From Escherichia phage ph0011: DNA of 64,000 nt. Below, one piece after another: positions 17,635-23,987 of this stretch (its first letter is position 1; each line of letters opens with the position of its first letter). The DNA lies in the sequence record OP557969.1. One strand, given 5' to 3'. A program made the translations under genes and the position numbers. The notes under the pieces were generated by a model. It was not told the DNA's origin and did no database searches. It saw only the letters and a program-made list of their open reading frames with translations.

Positions 17635-17663
17635 TTGACAAGTTGAAAATGATGTGATATAAT
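17635..17663 (+). promoter_or_regulatory. sigma70-type promoter P1 (TTGACA, 17-nt spacer, extended -10 TGaTATAAT)
   Basis: Consensus -35 TTGACA 17635-17640 and TATAAT 17658-17663 with TG at -15/-14; -10 lies inside inverted repeat TGTGAT...ATCACA. Confidence 0.6.
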
Positions 17664-17753: not shown

Positions 17754-17818
17754 GTTCACATCAAGACAACAAAGAGATTTACCTTTTAAACACACGGATG
17801 ATTCATGAAGTAACAAAG

Positions 17819-17861
17819 GAACTGATAAGTTAAAATATTTTAACACAGTTCCTTTACTTTT
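17819..17861 (+). terminator. hairpin with palindromic loop and T-run (terminator or attenuator candidate)
   Basis: Stem GGAACTG/CAGTTCC around a loop holding the 16-nt perfect palindrome GTTAAAATATTTTAAC, followed by TTTACTTTT. Confidence 0.4.
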
Positions 17862-17922
17862 GCACACGGATTGGCTATAATAGAAACCTAAACGATTTTA
17901 TCCAACAAAAGGAAATATATAC

Positions 17923-19248
17923 ATGACTACTCAAAACGATATCCTGAACGTTAAACTGACTCCAAAGAAAGCTAAAGAAGCAATGGCACTAGCTGACATG
18001 ATTCAAGATAGCCTGATGATTTGGGGTAGCCCAGGTATCGGTAAGTCTGCAATCGCTCGTCAATATGCTGATGAAAATTATCCACTGCGTAAAGACAACG
18101 AAGCCAAAATTGAGTTAATGAAACAACAAATTGAAGCTGACCCAGAGAATGCTGAACAGCTACGTCGTGAACTAGCTGCATTTGAAGCAAAACTGATCGA
18201 CCAAGATACAAACTTTATCGATTTCCGTTTGTCTCAGATTGAACCAAGTGACCTTCGTGGTATTCCAGTTCCAGAGAAACTTTTCCGTAAAACTGATGGT
18301 TCTCTCCTAAAAGAATCTGAGCTTGCTGAAGCAAAAGATTATGTAGCTGAAACAGCAGTAGTATGGGCAGCACCTAAAGTACTGAAATTACCAGATGATT
18401 GGAAAGGTGTTATTCTGTTTGACGAAATTAACTCTGCAATGCCAATTGTTCAGGCAGCGTCTTATCAGCTAATTCTCGACCGTTGTGTTGGTGAGATGAA
18501 GCTACCGAAAACTGCCCTGATTCTTGCAGCAGGTAACCGTGAAACTGATGGCGGTGTGACGTTCTCACTGGCTACACCACTACGTGACCGTATGACACAC
18601 ATTGAGATGATTCCTTATCATCAAGATTGGATCAACGATTATGCAATTGGTAAACGTTTGAACCCAGCAACTGTTGCGTTCATCAACAACACAGGTTCTA
18701 AGTACTTTAACACTCTTAGCCCACAAGATCCTTCTCACAGCGGTGGTACATCTCCGCGTTCATGGGAAGCAGTAGCACGCTACGAAGATCTGAAGAAAAC
18801 TAAGACGATTGATAAAGAAGTATTCCGTGCAATGATTGCGGGTCGTGTAGGTGAAGGTGTTGCAACTGAATACATTGAGTACGTTGATAACGTTGCAAAA
18901 CTCCCAGATACCATGTCTATTCTGTCTGGTGAAATCAAAGATATCGATGCGTCTCTTGATATTTCTGCTAACTACTTTATCACACTGAACTTGGTTTATA
19001 AAATTATTGACCTGTACAATGAGAAGCAAGAACAACGTCTACCAGTGGAAGAATGGGGTAAATTGTGCAACAACTTCATCACCTTCCTAGACCATAACTT
19101 CTCTGCAACTCAAGCAGAATTGGCAGTGCTGGCAATCCGTACCATTACACTACATAAGGTTTTGATTTCCATTAAAGATGTACCAGCGTTTAAAGATTTT
19201 ATCGCTAAGTACTCTGAACTAGTTCGTAAAGCACGCTCTCTTGGGTAA
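17923..19248 (+). CDS. MoxR/CobS-like AAA+ ATPase
   Basis: 441 aa; Walker A GSPGIGKS, Walker B ILFDEIN, sensor/Arg motifs AAGNRE and RDR; about 110-aa insertion between Walker A and B. Confidence 0.8.
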   Translation: MTTQNDILNVKLTPKKAKEAMALADMIQDSLMIWGSPGIGKSAIARQYADENYPLRKDNEAKIELMKQQIEADPENAEQLRRELAAFEAKLIDQDTNFIDFRLSQIEPSDLRGIPVPEKLFRKTDGSLLKESELAEAKDYVAETAVVWAAPKVLKLPDDWKGVILFDEINSAMPIVQAASYQLILDRCVGEMKLPKTALILAAGNRETDGGVTFSLATPLRDRMTHIEMIPYHQDWINDYAIGKRLNPATVAFINNTGSKYFNTLSPQDPSHSGGTSPRSWEAVARYEDLKKTKTIDKEVFRAMIAGRVGEGVATEYIEYVDNVAKLPDTMSILSGEIKDIDASLDISANYFITLNLVYKIIDLYNEKQEQRLPVEEWGKLCNNFITFLDHNFSATQAELAVLAIRTITLHKVLISIKDVPAFKDFIAKYSELVRKARSLG

Positions 19249-19262
19249 TTAACAAAGAGTTG

Positions 19263-19298
19263 TTGACAAGAAGGATACCTAATGGTATCCTTCTTTTA
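19263..19298 (+). terminator. hairpin terminator overlapped by a TTGACA box
   Basis: TTGACA then GAAGGATACC-TAAT-GGTATCCTTC followed by TTTTAT; between ATPase stop and VWA start. Confidence 0.45.
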
Positions 19299-19322
19299 TC
19301 TTAACTAAACGAGGAAATATAC

Positions 19323-20747
19323 ATGTCCGATAACAAAACTACATCTGTGTTCAATGAAGTATCCCCAGAACTTCAGAAAGAATGTCAAGACCGTCTAGTT
19401 CTGGCTCGTACATCTTTGATGTTGACTGCACCATTCTTCGGTGTATTGGCTTCGCGTTTGCGTCCAGTTCCAAATAACACATGGTGTCGTACTTTGGCAG
19501 TTGATGGTAAACATTTATTTTACAATGTAGAATTTGTAATGGGTGTTCAAGATCCAGCAAAAAAGAAAGCATATGAAGAGGCTATTCGCGAAAAGCACCC
19601 AGAAGTTACTGAAGAACAATTAAAAGAAATGACTGAAGGTCTGACAGATGAAAACATTATTGCAGTAATTTGTCATGAAATCTTGCACTGTGCATACGAT
19701 CACTTCCTTCGTCGTGGTATGCGTGATCCACAGCGTTATAACCGTGCAGCAGATTATGCGATTAACCAAATCATCGTTCGTGAGAAAATTGGTAAAATCC
19801 AAAGCTCATGGTTGTATGATAAAAAATATGAAGGAATGACTGCTGAAGAGATTTATAATCTTCTTGAAGAAGAAGAGCAACAGCAAGATGGTGAAGGTGA
19901 AGGTACACCACAAAGTGGCAGCGGTGAAGGTGAAGGCAAAGATCGCGGGACATTTGGTGATATCAAGGATGGTAAGGGTAAACCAAAAGGTACTACAATT
20001 GACCAACATGACGTTCCACAAGAAGGTCAAGAAGGTGGTTCTAGTGAACAACAAAAACGTGATTATATGGATGATTTTAAAACAGCAATGATGAATGCTG
20101 CTCGTGCTGGTGGTACACCAGCAGAAATCGCTCGTATGATTAATAACTTCAAAGAACCAAAGATTGATTGGCGTTCTAAGCTTCAACGCACTCTTCGTAG
20201 TTGGTTGAAGTCTGATGCAACTTATCAAAATCCAGCACGTCGTTCATGGGGTGCAGGTTTTGGTTCTAATGGTTCATTTTATGGTAATCCAATTTATCCA
20301 GGGATGAAACCAGATGATGATATTGATATTGCGATTGCTCTGGATGCTTCTGGATCTATTTCCGAAGACATGCTTCGTGATTTCATTAGTGAAGTTCTTG
20401 GTATCACTAAACAATTTAAACAGTTTAAGATTCGTATCATGACATTTGATACTGAAGTTTATACTGTCAAGGATTACAAAACTGGTGAAGAACGTAAGAT
20501 TCTGGAATATCCAGTAAAAGGTGGTGGCGGTACTGATTTTGAAGCAGTGTGGGTTCACATGAAGAATGACAATTATAAGCCTAAACAGCTTGTCATGTTT
20601 ACTGATGGTGAGCCATGGCAGTCATGGGGTGATCCAAACTATTGCAAAACATTGTTTGTGATTCACAGTAATCCAAATAAAGTTGCACCATTTGGTGAAA
20701 CAGTACACTACGAGTATGAAGCAGACAAAAAACGTCAACGTAGTTAA
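19323..20747 (+). CDS. VWA-domain protein with N-terminal HExxH metallopeptidase-like domain (CobT/DUF2201-like partner of MoxR ATPases)
   Basis: 474 aa; HEILH zinc-binding-type motif; low-complexity linker (GEGEG); MIDAS motif DASGS and GGGGTDFE in C-terminal VWA-like domain. Confidence 0.8.
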   Translation: MSDNKTTSVFNEVSPELQKECQDRLVLARTSLMLTAPFFGVLASRLRPVPNNTWCRTLAVDGKHLFYNVEFVMGVQDPAKKKAYEEAIREKHPEVTEEQLKEMTEGLTDENIIAVICHEILHCAYDHFLRRGMRDPQRYNRAADYAINQIIVREKIGKIQSSWLYDKKYEGMTAEEIYNLLEEEEQQQDGEGEGTPQSGSGEGEGKDRGTFGDIKDGKGKPKGTTIDQHDVPQEGQEGGSSEQQKRDYMDDFKTAMMNAARAGGTPAEIARMINNFKEPKIDWRSKLQRTLRSWLKSDATYQNPARRSWGAGFGSNGSFYGNPIYPGMKPDDDIDIAIALDASGSISEDMLRDFISEVLGITKQFKQFKIRIMTFDTEVYTVKDYKTGEERKILEYPVKGGGGTDFEAVWVHMKNDNYKPKQLVMFTDGEPWQSWGDPNYCKTLFVIHSNPNKVAPFGETVHYEYEADKKRQRS

Positions 20748-20760
20748 GTACTAAATAATG

Positions 20761-20789
20761 AGAACGGAATTTTCCGTTCTCTTCTTTTT
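20761..20789 (+). terminator. intrinsic terminator
   Basis: AGAACGG-AATTTT-CCGTTCT followed by CTTCTTTTT, 14 nt after stop. Confidence 0.55.
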
Positions 20790-20814
20790 ATAAGTGGGAT
20801 GACTTATAAAAATA

Positions 20815-20823
20815 TGATATAAT
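20815..20823 (+). promoter_or_regulatory. extended -10 promoter element (TGaTATAAT)
   Basis: ATGATATAAT about 20 nt upstream of ATG 20843. Confidence 0.35.
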
Positions 20824-20842: not shown

Positions 20843-21091
20843 ATGGAGAGTAATAAAATGGAACAAGAAAACAATCAAATTCAACTAACCCTTCTGGACC
20901 TAATTAACGCTGCAAAAATCATGGAAGCTGCTGTTGCACGAAACACGTTTAAAGTAGAAGAGCTAGTTGATGTATCTCCAGTTGTCTCTAAGTTTGTTTC
21001 TTTTGCAAACGTAGCACTTGAAGATATCAAAGCACAAGAAGATGCAGCTAAAGCACAAGAAAGCGAAACTCAAGAAAATAAAGGAGAGTAA
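20843..21091 (+). CDS. hypothetical protein
   Basis: 82 aa; alternative start at ATG 20858 has better RBS spacing (GGAGAG). Confidence 0.5.
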   Translation: MESNKMEQENNQIQLTLLDLINAAKIMEAAVARNTFKVEELVDVSPVVSKFVSFANVALEDIKAQEDAAKAQESETQENKGE

Positions 21092-21093
21092 TT

Positions 21094-21750
21094 ATGGCAG
21101 CTATTCGTCATGTTGGTGTAATGCGTAATACAGGTTCTCGTGTTTTTGTTGTTTGGCGTTCACTACCAGATGATCCTGAACACTGCCTTATTGTTTATCG
21201 CGATTCACTTCCTGAAGCATATGTTCATGCAGTGACTGATATTGTGATGGGGCATGGTCAATCAAATATTGATTTATGGGAAGTGATGCATAAAATCGGT
21301 TATCTAGATGGTCGTAAAATGTTAGATGTTTTACATAACATGCAATATCTACGCCGTGTACGTACTTGTGATATCGATATGCACACTGGTGGTAATAATA
21401 AAATCTCACTTGATGTGCTTAATAAAGCATTGGATGAAAATCAAGCTAAAATTCAAGAAGATGGTAAAGTAAAAGACTTTAACCCATTTGACCCACAGGA
21501 AGCTGACACTAAAGTTGAAGAAGCTACTATTGTTGAAAAACTCATTTCTGATGCACAAAAATATGAAAAACTAGCTCAAGAATATTATGAGCGTGCATAC
21601 AATCTAGAGCCATCATTGCGTCCACAAGCACAAGTGGTTGAGCATAAAAAAGATAGCAAAACACTTTATCTGGAAATCCCAGAAGGTATTTCACAAACCA
21701 AGGCTATTGAGAAAGTAAAACAACTGTTTGCAGCACGAAAAGCAAAATAA
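21094..21750 (+). CDS. hypothetical protein
   Basis: 218 aa; AAGGAGAG RBS; no motif recognised. Confidence 0.6.
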   Translation: MAAIRHVGVMRNTGSRVFVVWRSLPDDPEHCLIVYRDSLPEAYVHAVTDIVMGHGQSNIDLWEVMHKIGYLDGRKMLDVLHNMQYLRRVRTCDIDMHTGGNNKISLDVLNKALDENQAKIQEDGKVKDFNPFDPQEADTKVEEATIVEKLISDAQKYEKLAQEYYERAYNLEPSLRPQAQVVEHKKDSKTLYLEIPEGISQTKAIEKVKQLFAARKAK

Positions 21751-21753
21751 ATT

Positions 21754-22347
21754 ATGACAAAGATTGAATTAGATGAAGCGATTAAAGGTTTATCTAATGT
21801 GTGTTTTAGTGGCGGGGCAGCAGGTGCTGACCGCCTTTTTTCTATCTATGCAAAAGATAATGGATTTGAAGTTGTTAATTTTTCATTTAAAGGTCATGAG
21901 CATAGTGTAGATGAAAATACTATATTAGAAATACCATCCAATATTCTATCTGATATTTCTATATTAAAGCAACTAAACATTGCATGTTACTCGTTGCAGA
22001 GAAAAGTACCAAAGCCTGGTTCTTATGTTTATAACTTACTTGCAAGGAATAGTTATCAAATACTTAATACAGAAAGAATATATTGTATTGCAAATATTAC
22101 ATCACCAACTAAGGTGAGTGGTGGTACTGCATGGGCAGTGCAGATGTACATGGATTCAGTTGAAAATCCTGAAATTTATTGTTATGATATGAATTCACGT
22201 TCTGTATTTTATTTTGACACAGTACTGAAAGAGTTTACTGAAACATTCTCAATACCAGAACCACACGGTAACTGGACTGGGATTGGTTCACGTAATGCTA
22301 CACAAAAACACATGGAACATTTTATTACATTTTTCAAGGAAGTATAA
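21754..22347 (+). CDS. SLOG/Rossmann-like protein (DprA/LOG-like glycine motif)
   Basis: 197 aa; FSGGAAGADR and later SGGTAWAV glycine-rich motifs; stop overlaps td start (TAATG). Confidence 0.4.
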   Translation: MTKIELDEAIKGLSNVCFSGGAAGADRLFSIYAKDNGFEVVNFSFKGHEHSVDENTILEIPSNILSDISILKQLNIACYSLQRKVPKPGSYVYNLLARNSYQILNTERIYCIANITSPTKVSGGTAWAVQMYMDSVENPEIYCYDMNSRSVFYFDTVLKEFTETFSIPEPHGNWTGIGSRNATQKHMEHFITFFKEV

Positions 22348-23987
22348 TGAAACAACTACAAGAACTATATCAAAAAATTCTAGATGAAGGCGTGGAAAGT
22401 GTTGACCGTACTGGTGTTGGTACAACCAAACTTATCGGTCAACAAATGCGTTTCGACCTTAACGATGGTTTTCCAGCAGTGACGACAAAACGTCTAGCAT
22501 GGAAAACAATGGTTGCTGAACTTTTATTTTTTATTAAAGGTATTCCAGACCGTCGAGTGATGCAGGAATTTTTACATGGTGAATTTAATGAAGATAAGAA
22601 CGATATTTGGAAAGGTAATTGTGTTGATATGAAAAATAAAAATCCATTAAAATTTAATGGATACAATTTAGGTAATATGTACCCAGTTTACTGGAGACGA
22701 ATGTATAAACCTGTTCCTAAAACAGTTAAAGTTAAACGTAAAAAAGACTTTGATTTTGAATATATTGAAAAATATAAATCATTTTATGATGATGTAGAAA
22801 TTGAAAAACATCATAAATCGGGTCAAACATTCATTGATATTAGGGGAGATGAGTTAGAATATCTTGGATTCAATGGACAGTATGAAAATAAACGACATTA
22901 TTTGAAATATAAGAACACGGGAACTATAATCAAACTCAATACATCTGAAATTGATATTAAACATAATAAACTTAATAGTGGTGAAGATTATTATAAAAAA
23001 AATTCAGTCGGTGGATATTTGGGTGCACCACGTGAAGTTCTTTCAAATGATCCATTGAACTCAAAAGTACAGAGCCTATGGTATAATATGCTTTCTCGTG
23101 TAAACACCTCTCCCAACTATAATAATATTAGTGTTAGCCCAAGGTGGTATAATTATTATAACTTCCTAACTGACATTCGTACTATACCACTGTTTTTTGA
23201 ATGGTTGGATGATCCAACATATTATGAATTAGATAAAGATTATTTTGGTTCATCTGTTTATTCAAGAAATACATGTACATTTTTACCCAAACATATCAAT
23301 CAAAAATTAATAAGAAAACGCAATGACTGTGCATTGGAAGTTGATGGAATACTTTATTATTCATTTACATGTTTTTATAAATCAATTTATGGTGGGAAAA
23401 CACAACCAAAAGATCCATTTACTTTTTTAGAAAATAACGGTCATACTTATATTATTCACGAAGAGACAGATGAATATGTATACCGTCCACAATTGTTTAT
23501 TGATCAATTAGAAACTGTTATTGAAAATATTAAACATGTCACCTTGAATGAAAATCATCCGGCTGGACGTAGATTGATTATGGATTCTTGGAATCCATCA
23601 TGGGAGGACGATTCAGTTCTGGGAATATGTCACCCATTTGTTCAATTCTTTGTAGTGAATGGAAAGCTGTCATGTGAGTTTTATATGCGTTCATCTGACA
23701 CATTTCTTGGATTACCACTGAATATATCATCATATGCATTATTGACGCACATGATTGCACAAATTACAGGTCTAGAAGTAGGAGAGCTAATTTACACTGC
23801 TGGTGATTGTCACATTTATAAAAATCACATTGAACAAGTAAAAGAACAACTACAACGAAAACCACGTGCATTACCTGAATTATGGATTGATCCTACTATT
23901 ACTGATATTGAAGATTTCACAATGGATTCTTTTAAATTGATTAATTACGATCCAATGCCAACAATTAAAGCACCGATGGCTGTATAA
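22347..23987 (+). CDS. td: thymidylate synthase (T4 Td-like) with about 260-aa in-frame insertion
   Basis: N-terminus DRTGVGT...GFPAVTTKRLAWK and C-terminus with catalytic Cys (ICHPFVQFF), DTFLGLPLNISSYALLTHM and PTIKAPMAV are ThyA-like; residues ~121-379 have no ThyA counterpart. Confidence 0.8.
   Translation: MKQLQELYQKILDEGVESVDRTGVGTTKLIGQQMRFDLNDGFPAVTTKRLAWKTMVAELLFFIKGIPDRRVMQEFLHGEFNEDKNDIWKGNCVDMKNKNPLKFNGYNLGNMYPVYWRRMYKPVPKTVKVKRKKDFDFEYIEKYKSFYDDVEIEKHHKSGQTFIDIRGDELEYLGFNGQYENKRHYLKYKNTGTIIKLNTSEIDIKHNKLNSGEDYYKKNSVGGYLGAPREVLSNDPLNSKVQSLWYNMLSRVNTSPNYNNISVSPRWYNYYNFLTDIRTIPLFFEWLDDPTYYELDKDYFGSSVYSRNTCTFLPKHINQKLIRKRNDCALEVDGILYYSFTCFYKSIYGGKTQPKDPFTFLENNGHTYIIHEETDEYVYRPQLFIDQLETVIENIKHVTLNENHPAGRRLIMDSWNPSWEDDSVLGICHPFVQFFVVNGKLSCEFYMRSSDTFLGLPLNISSYALLTHMIAQITGLEVGELIYTAGDCHIYKNHIEQVKEQLQRKPRALPELWIDPTITDIEDFTMDSFKLINYDPMPTIKAPMAV

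Follow-up and report, generated by a model that had tools for sequence, protein, structure and literature searches.

What does a bacteriophage gain from a MoxR-type AAA+ ATPase encoded beside a protein that joins a zinc-peptidase-like domain to a von Willebrand factor type A (VWA) domain? The question is raised by a two-gene locus in the 64,000-nucleotide stretch of Escherichia phage ph0011 (sequence record OP557969.1) that was analysed here, hereafter the window. An earlier note on this DNA had taken the pair, with its MoxR/CobS-like ATPase, for the best candidate for an undescribed host-takeover or counter-defence module in a T4-like phage. Its observation is confirmed, and its interpretation is partly supported: the two genes are the jumbo-phage ortholog of the catalogued and published gp24/gp25 pair of phage N4 and, by analogy with other MoxR-VWA machines, we give a probability of about 0.5 to the reading that their products would form an early, ATP-driven machine, guided by a metal-ion-dependent adhesion site (MIDAS), that remodels and cleaves proteins in the service of host takeover or counter-defence.

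Composition of the pair

Both open reading frames (ORFs) lie precisely where they had been reported (Table 1), and their matches to PHROG and Pfam families exclude chance ORFs; the second begins 75 nucleotides (nt) 3' of the end of the first. The ATPase matches phrog_1297 (1e-106). Its Walker A and Walker B motifs, GSPGIGKS and ILFDEIN, are found exactly as read previously, along with a sensor 1 asparagine (N205, in AAGN), an arginine finger (R223, in PLxDR) and a sensor 2 arginine (R279, in SPRSW), the last three roles being assigned from alignment position. The residues G35, G38, K41, S42, E168, N205, R223 and R279 are invariant both in 61 relatives and across seven lineages, namely the window phage, Vequintavirus Bas53, Certrevirus phiTE, the Pseudomonas jumbo phage Ettore, N4, LUZ7 and the Thermus phage phiFa. 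The AlphaFold2 model (mean predicted local distance difference test score, pLDDT, 87.6) shows the helix-2 insert and the pre-sensor-1 hairpin of the MoxR clade in a fold closest to midasin, CbbQ and NorQ, and the family profile retrieves midasin at 3e-14. By motifs, families and folds alike, the protein is a MoxR-clade AAA+ ATPase (AAA_5; midasin/CbbQ/NorQ type) with a complete catalytic set. In the alignment it is without an obvious aromatic pore loop, so local remodelling fits it better than FtsH-like threading.

The jumbo-phage ATPases differ from relatives of ~350-360 amino acids (aa) by two insertions, of which one forms a helical hairpin (aa 53-95) and the other an extended beta-hairpin (aa 120-147); these probably break the match to the Pfam families AAA_3 and AAA_5. 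An AAA_5 match at gathering score, as envisaged earlier, is absent from the window protein itself and present in shorter relatives within the same alignment, which match AAA_3 (8/18), AAA_5 (7/18) and bpMoxR (4/18). The parallel expectation for its partner was borne out, as this protein, besides matching phrog_1314 (8e-128), carries Pfam DUF2201_N ('putative metallopeptidase'; 2.6e-35, 122.8 bits with a cut-off of 23.2) and, C-terminal to it, DUF2201 ('VWA-like'; 7e-21, 75.1 bits with a cut-off of 26.4). Both families are matched in all 19 family members from the seven lineages.

In the peptidase-VWA protein the HEILH and DASGS motifs are likewise exactly in place. Nine of its residues, H118, E119 and H122 of the former together with the MIDAS residues D341, S343, G344, S345, T404 and D428, show no variation among 62 close relatives or across the seven lineages, where H127 (extending the first motif to HExxHxxxxH) and the motif N140-x-A142-x-D144-x-x-I-N148 are also invariant; the MIDAS consensus in homologs is DxSGS/T/D. 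Thus, no loss of HExxH or MIDAS conservation is seen in either set. The AlphaFold2 model (pLDDT 78.9) contains disordered linkers at aa 195-218 and 297-329, and structure comparison identifies the C-terminal fold as a VWA domain, with matches to VWA/NorD. The peptidase domain shows weak M48-like similarity in Pfam searches of the 19 members, and the family profile found no solved relative by sequence in the PDB. We conclude that in this protein a zincin-type HExxHxxxxH site is joined to a VWA domain whose MIDAS is perfect, and on these motifs it is a predicted peptidase. For both proteins, PADLOC and NCBIfam gave zero matches, and single-sequence searches of the PDB gave only noise.

A side observation concerns long members of the family. 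The metagenomic relatives P0295 and P0292, of 733-794 aa, carry an intein inside DUF2201_N, near the HExxH region, which in P0295 includes Hint and LAGLIDADG modules. A 'Rosetta-stone' fusion to the ATPase had been considered for these long relatives (733 and 794 aa) and was rejected, inteins having been found instead. Inteins usually occupy conserved sites of important proteins.

Kinship with N4 gp24/gp25 and spread across phages

The 3.4-kb region of the pair is 92.5% identical in nucleotide sequence to Escherichia phages UE-S1, 121Q, phAPEC6 and PBECO4. As these are Asteriusvirus jumbo phages of ~350 kb, we assign the window phage, on this sequence identity, to the Rak2/121Q-type (Asteriusvirus-like) jumbo myoviruses, whose relationship to T4 is only distant, which corrects the label 'T4-like'. 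The window has far fewer copies of the T4 late motif TATAAATA than expected, one against ~8 per strand. The closest database proteins for the two are 96% and 93% identical, and the UE-S1 ATPase is 98.6% identical.

Nor can the pair be called undescribed. N4-like phages share 14 core genes, gp24 and gp25 ('vWFA domain') of N4 among them; the two are part of the middle transcripts and do not appear in the list of N4 virion proteins (PMC4193335). The phAPEC6 copies are annotated as 'MoxR ATPase' and 'N4 gp25-like protein', and the combination of a MoxR protein with an N-terminal metallopeptidase-vWA protein has been described in jumbo phages of group 2.2, for which virion assembly and also the processing of structural proteins were proposed (Iyer et al. 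2021, Viruses 13:63). The locus itself adds little beyond one more ortholog; what it contributes is a regulatory anatomy and the two lineage-specific ATPase insertions.

The kinship with N4 is one of full-length homology, the same domain order and adjacent genes on the same strand, and it extends to the motifs: gp25 has HELWH...H and DTSGS, and gp24 shares Walker A and B, the AGN of sensor 1 and the arginines. Against this, identity is only ~26-27%, the N4-type ATPases are without the two insertions, and the window peptidase domain has an extra segment of ~35 aa before HExxH relative to gp25. Further, N4 transcribes gp24/gp25 with its own middle RNA polymerase, whereas the promoters in the window are sigma-70-like.

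Beyond these phages, many unrelated phage lineages carry the ATPase and peptidase-VWA genes together. In tblastn searches, 587 phage records contained the peptidase-VWA protein and 807 contained the ATPase, with near-equal numbers per genus (peptidase-VWA/ATPase: Vibrio 94/92, Pectobacterium 26/26, Cronobacter 17/17, Achromobacter 17/17), and an exhaustive profile search for the peptidase-VWA protein, in sequences clustered at 50% identity, reached 29,907 clusters at E <= 1e-3, of which 11,511 pass E <= 1e-30. The two genes lie side by side or no more than a few kb apart in Asteriusvirus, Alcyoneusvirus, Munch, N4, LUZ7, phiTE, Ettore, phiFa and one metagenomic phage. One small ORF splits the pair in LUZ7 and phiTE, a few genes do so in Ettore and phiFa, and in Vequintavirus the two lie 3.7 kb apart on opposite strands. 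The metagenomic phage has a 375-aa gene directly beside its DUF2201 gene, the two being flanked by genes for an RNA ligase and a 5'-3' exonuclease. Few phage gene pairs without an assigned function are conserved as widely.

Comparison with better-studied machines brings out what is distinctive about it. In CbbQ-CbbO (Rubisco activase), NorQ-NorD, RavA-ViaA and midasin/Rea1, no peptidase is fused to the VWA domain, and the client is remodelled or matured, not cut; the fused peptidase sets the N4 gp25-type family apart from these other MoxR-VWA pairs. FtsH, too, unites an AAA+ motor and a zinc peptidase of the HExxH type. However, it does so in one polypeptide, which is anchored in the membrane, belongs to the classical AAA clade and has aromatic pore loops and an M41 peptidase, whereas the window encodes two soluble proteins, a MoxR-clade motor and a peptidase of the DUF2201_N family.

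Proposed role and competing explanations

Analogy with these systems suggests how the pair would work. The ATPase hexamer would dock the VWA protein, as in CbbQ-CbbO, NorQ-NorD and midasin-Rsa4/Ytm1; as in other MoxR-VWA machines, the MIDAS metal would grip an acidic residue of a specific client protein, and the client would be remodelled through ATP hydrolysis. The tethered peptidase, given that it is fused and strictly conserved, would then cut that client. Host RNA polymerase would transcribe the two genes from their own tandem sigma-70 promoters, apart from the neighbouring virion genes, and the hairpin between them may reduce the amount of the peptidase-VWA protein relative to the ATPase. 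The pair would act early on host proteins, immune ones included, in an accessory capacity and not as an essential step in virion construction, a view that we take because of the promoters, the middle timing of the genes in N4 and the dispensability of their homologs in the Vequintavirus Bas54.

It is Bas54 that provides the only phenotype in the family. The HIDEN-SEQ preprint (10.1101/2025.11.20.689424) mapped gene essentiality in this phage by the number of TA sites hit on K-12, and by insertion depletion on CFE311, a clinical isolate carrying the defence system DS-28. The MoxR ATPase gene bas54_0063 is non-essential on K-12 (60/64 sites hit) and strongly depleted on CFE311 (log2 fold change -7.23, q ~0); the putative metallopeptidase gene bas54_0055 is also non-essential (81/86) and is depleted with a log2 fold change of -2.20 (p = 0.0009, q = 0.009); and so is bas54_0140, which has no annotated function (24/24; -5.48). 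Clean deletions of bas54_0063 and of bas54_0140 are specifically sensitive to DS-28 (10.1101/2025.11.20.689424), whereas the evidence for bas54_0055 is its insertion depletion on CFE311, which limits the transfer of the phenotype to the pair as a whole. DS-28 comprises two genes, for a hypothetical protein and a HEPN-family nuclease, and comes from the DefensePredictor study (PMC13092281). The first phenotype for the family, that a MoxR knockout becomes sensitive to a HEPN-nuclease defence system, came only in a 2025 preprint; two other phage transposon-sequencing (Tn-seq) preprints, the CRISPRi-ART paper and the CBB jumbo-phage paper do not mention the family.

With Bas53, the sister phage of Bas54, as the source of the compared proteins, the window ATPase is 25% identical to its ortholog (E = 3e-32) and the peptidase-VWA protein 28% identical over its full length (E = 4e-52). 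The Bas54 pair is therefore homologous; it differs in having its genes 3.7 kb apart on opposite strands, in VWA motifs that read STWGT and LTDL in place of GGGGT and FTDG, and in a phenotype that also needs bas54_0140. The suggestion of a host-takeover or counter-defence module thus gains support from a distant ortholog acting against DS-28, and it is weakened by the restriction of bas54_0140 to Vequintavirus.

The idea can be carried further, as a tentative proposal: the gp24/gp25-type pair may be a widespread targeted protease acting in trans, in which the MIDAS selects a host protein, the MoxR ring remodels it and the zincin cuts it. Its target may be, for example, an immune sensor or effector like the DS-28 HEPN system, or a conserved host factor that such systems monitor. 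If this were true, Schitoviridae, Vequintavirinae and Rak2-like jumbo phages would carry, as a core gene pair, a general counter-defence or host-takeover enzyme that depends on ATP and is of a kind not yet described mechanistically. Identifying the substrate and the mechanism would account for a core function in several major groups of therapeutic phages, and the pair could reveal the ATP-driven, MIDAS-guided protease as a new principle of counter-defence.

Several observations weigh against an early role in takeover or counter-defence. The pair belongs to the core of every N4-like phage and occurs in hundreds of phages, which is unusual for a counter-defence gene and suggests a more general function. 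In jumbo phages it adjoins virion genes, and mass spectrometry of phAPEC6 virions detected the ATPase, gp265c, with 6 peptides and 19% coverage. The window ATPase itself stays below the Pfam gathering thresholds, with sub-threshold matches to AAA, TniB and Mg_chelatase only. The functional evidence comes from Bas54 orthologs that are 25-28% identical to the window proteins. Moreover, the 118 records in which tblastn found bas54_0140 are all of Vequintavirus type, each with >=80% identity, and the gene was not found for the window phage, of whose genome 64 kb was inspected directly. Because of this restriction, a partner specific to that lineage may be needed for the DS-28 phenotype.

Foremost among the rivals is the proposal that the two proteins serve virion assembly as chaperone and co-chaperone and also trim structural proteins at maturation. 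This is the role put forward explicitly for the same pair in the same jumbo-phage group (Iyer et al. 2021, Viruses 13:63), in contrast to the early accessory role to which we lean, and it would suit both the position of the pair directly 3' of genes of PHROG 'virion structural protein' families and the presence of gp265c in purified phAPEC6 virions. However, the peptidase-VWA protein was not detected in those virions and thymidylate synthase was, a combination that suggests carry-over of abundant soluble proteins. Furthermore, both homologs are non-essential in Bas54 on K-12, N4 gp24 and gp25 are middle genes absent from the list of virion proteins, the window pair is set apart from the structural block by its own sigma-70 promoters and terminator, and the neighbours in N4, LUZ7, phiFa and the metagenomic phage are replication genes. 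Taken together, we regard an assembly role as somewhat unlikely.

Those same replication neighbours are the starting point for another alternative, in which the pair would help replication or nucleotide metabolism, either by inserting a metal cofactor, in the manner of NorQD, CoxDE and the chelatases, or by stripping and cleaving DNA-bound proteins, like Wss1/SprT-type zincins working with an AAA+ partner. Genes for dCTP deaminase, helicase and DNA polymerase accompany the pair in N4 and LUZ7, RNase H does so in phiFa, RNA ligase and the 5'-3' exonuclease in the metagenomic phage, and thymidylate synthase lies near it in the window; VWA_CoxE is matched in 4/19 peptidase-VWA relatives, and core-gene status in the N4-like phages fits a housekeeping role. 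Yet the window proteins match no chelatase or cofactor-insertion family, a strictly conserved peptidase site is unexpected in a cofactor insertase, SprT-like similarity is negligible (1/19 members, E = 0.14), and dispensability in Bas54 counts here as well. We therefore judge a helper function of this type unlikely.

The 'CobS-like' label leads to a more specific version of the chelatase idea. CobS, a MoxR-related AAA+ protein encoded by cyanophages too, has the VWA protein CobT as its partner. A CobS/CobT-like cobaltochelatase is nevertheless very unlikely, as neither Pfam nor NCBIfam places the window proteins at threshold in a CobS, CobT, CbbQ_C or chelatase family, Mg_chelatase reaches only E = 0.0075 and is confined to the P-loop, and the partner has a peptidase domain in place of the CobT architecture; the label finds nothing specific in its favour. 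Finally, that the peptidase-VWA protein is an HNH or homing endonuclease is exceedingly improbable, since the 'HNH endonuclease' name of phrog_1314, copied into many phage GenBank records, appears to be a propagated annotation error: no HNH family of Pfam matches at E <= 1 in any of the 19 members, all of which instead match DUF2201_N and DUF2201, the C-terminal fold is that of a VWA domain, and the conserved HExxHxxxxH is typical of zincins.

Regulatory features and neighbouring genes

Table 1. Features of the ATPase/peptidase-VWA locus and its 3' flank in the window (positions are those of the 64,000-nt stretch)
Feature	Position	Strand	Description
Promoter P1	17635..17663	+	TTGACA-17-TATAAT with extended -10 TG (TGTGATATAAT); 12/12 consensus match
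Promoter P2	17726..17753	+	TTGACG-16-TATAAT with extended -10; 11/12 consensus match
Leader hairpin	17815..17863	+	AAAGGAACTG...CAGTTCCTTT then ACTTTTGC; conserved, terminator/attenuator-like
Third, weaker promoter-like site	17853..17881	+	TTTACT-17-TATAAT; 10/12 match
MoxR-class AAA+ ATPase ORF	17923..19248	+	441 aa, 49.5 kDa; N4 gp24 homolog; phrog_1297
Walker A, GSPGIGKS	18025-18048		aa 35-42 of the ATPase
Walker B, ILFDEIN	18412-18432		aa 164-170 of the ATPase
Terminator-like hairpin between the genes	19268..19295	+	12-bp stem + TTTT; terminator scan
Zincin-like metallopeptidase (DUF2201_N) + MIDAS VWA (DUF2201) ORF	19323..20747	+	474 aa, 54 kDa; N4 gp25 homolog
HEILH	19674-19688		aa 118-122 of the peptidase-VWA protein
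MIDAS, DASGS	20343-20357		aa 341-345 of the peptidase-VWA protein
MIDAS, GGGGT	20520-20534		includes T404
MIDAS, FTDG	20598-20609		includes D428
Intrinsic terminator closing the pair	20760..20790	+	9-bp GC-rich stem + T-run; terminator scan
Two ORFs after the pair	20843-21750		82 aa (phrog_13789) and 218 aa (phrog_15894)
SLOG/YpsA-like ORF	21754-22347		197 aa; phrog_768 'DprA-like'
Thymidylate synthase ORF	22347-23987		546 aa

The two near-consensus promoters noticed earlier upstream of the pair stand up to a sigma-70 consensus scan (Table 1), in which only nine sites in the whole window reach at least 11/12. P1 is kept in phAPEC6, Turkey3 and Muenster; P2, a near-duplicate of P1 whose 28-nt motif is unique in the window, is also kept in relatives. 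They are followed by a ~165-nt leader (17754-17922) that is better conserved than the coding DNA, being ~98% identical to that of phAPEC6 as against 92.5% for the whole locus, and that has a fold z of -2.66; no Rfam family matched in it or elsewhere in the window. Within the leader, the hairpin and its U-tract sit between the tandem promoters and the third promoter-like site, which overlaps the U-tract and has its -10 kept in the Escherichia relatives. Judged by eye from the alignment of relatives, the leader stem still pairs after two-sided changes (GGACTG/CAGTCC in Muenster, GGCACTG/CAGTGCC in Munch). P1 and P2 may yield a short leader RNA, or attenuation may control the ATPase gene.

The position of the terminator-like hairpin between the two genes is kept in four relatives, with both sides of the stem changed in Munch; it overlaps a TTGACA hexamer, and the annotations of Muenster and Munch list it as a terminator. 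One possible function is to fix the proportion of ATPase to peptidase-VWA protein. The terminator said to close the pair was recovered by the scan at 20760-20781, and Muenster and Munch carry annotated terminators at the same place.

Synteny around the pair is kept in the Escherichia, Klebsiella and Salmonella relatives: virion-protein genes are followed by a long intergenic region, the ATPase gene, the hairpin, the peptidase-VWA gene, the terminator and then two small conserved ORFs, a variable stretch and thymidylate synthase. The flanks of the pair in the window are as noted earlier, with PHROG 'virion structural protein' genes on the 5' side and a SLOG/YpsA-like gene with thymidylate synthase on the 3' side. 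The two ORFs directly after the pair, without an assigned function, are syntenic in all Rak2-like relatives examined and are preceded by a -10-like element of their own, TGATATAAT; the ortholog of the 218-aa protein in phAPEC6, gp262c, was detected once by virion mass spectrometry. The SLOG/YpsA-like gene between the pair and thyA, which also has a weak match to Pfam YAcAr, occurs in phage Turkey3 (annotated ypsA) and not in phAPEC6, and is possibly a nucleotide-sensing occupant of a variable slot. The thymidylate synthase is much longer than the ~309 aa of its counterparts in phAPEC6, Muenster and Munch. An in-frame insertion of ~255 aa follows its conserved 'YPVYWRR' segment, the Pfam ThyA match falls into two parts, and residues ~178-340 resemble 'HNH endonuclease' PHROGs; the insertion shows no obvious intein ends and no match to Pfam or to a group I intron in Rfam.

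Among promoter elements in the window at large, a late-promoter candidate, AATAAATA-N-TATAAT, has only two matches. An extended -10 element, (A)TGTGATATAATG or TGATATAAT, recurs 5' of several genes, whether or not a -35 hexamer is present (at 17635, 17726, 42774, 5500-5530 and 20814-20822), and may mark one temporal promoter class of the phage.

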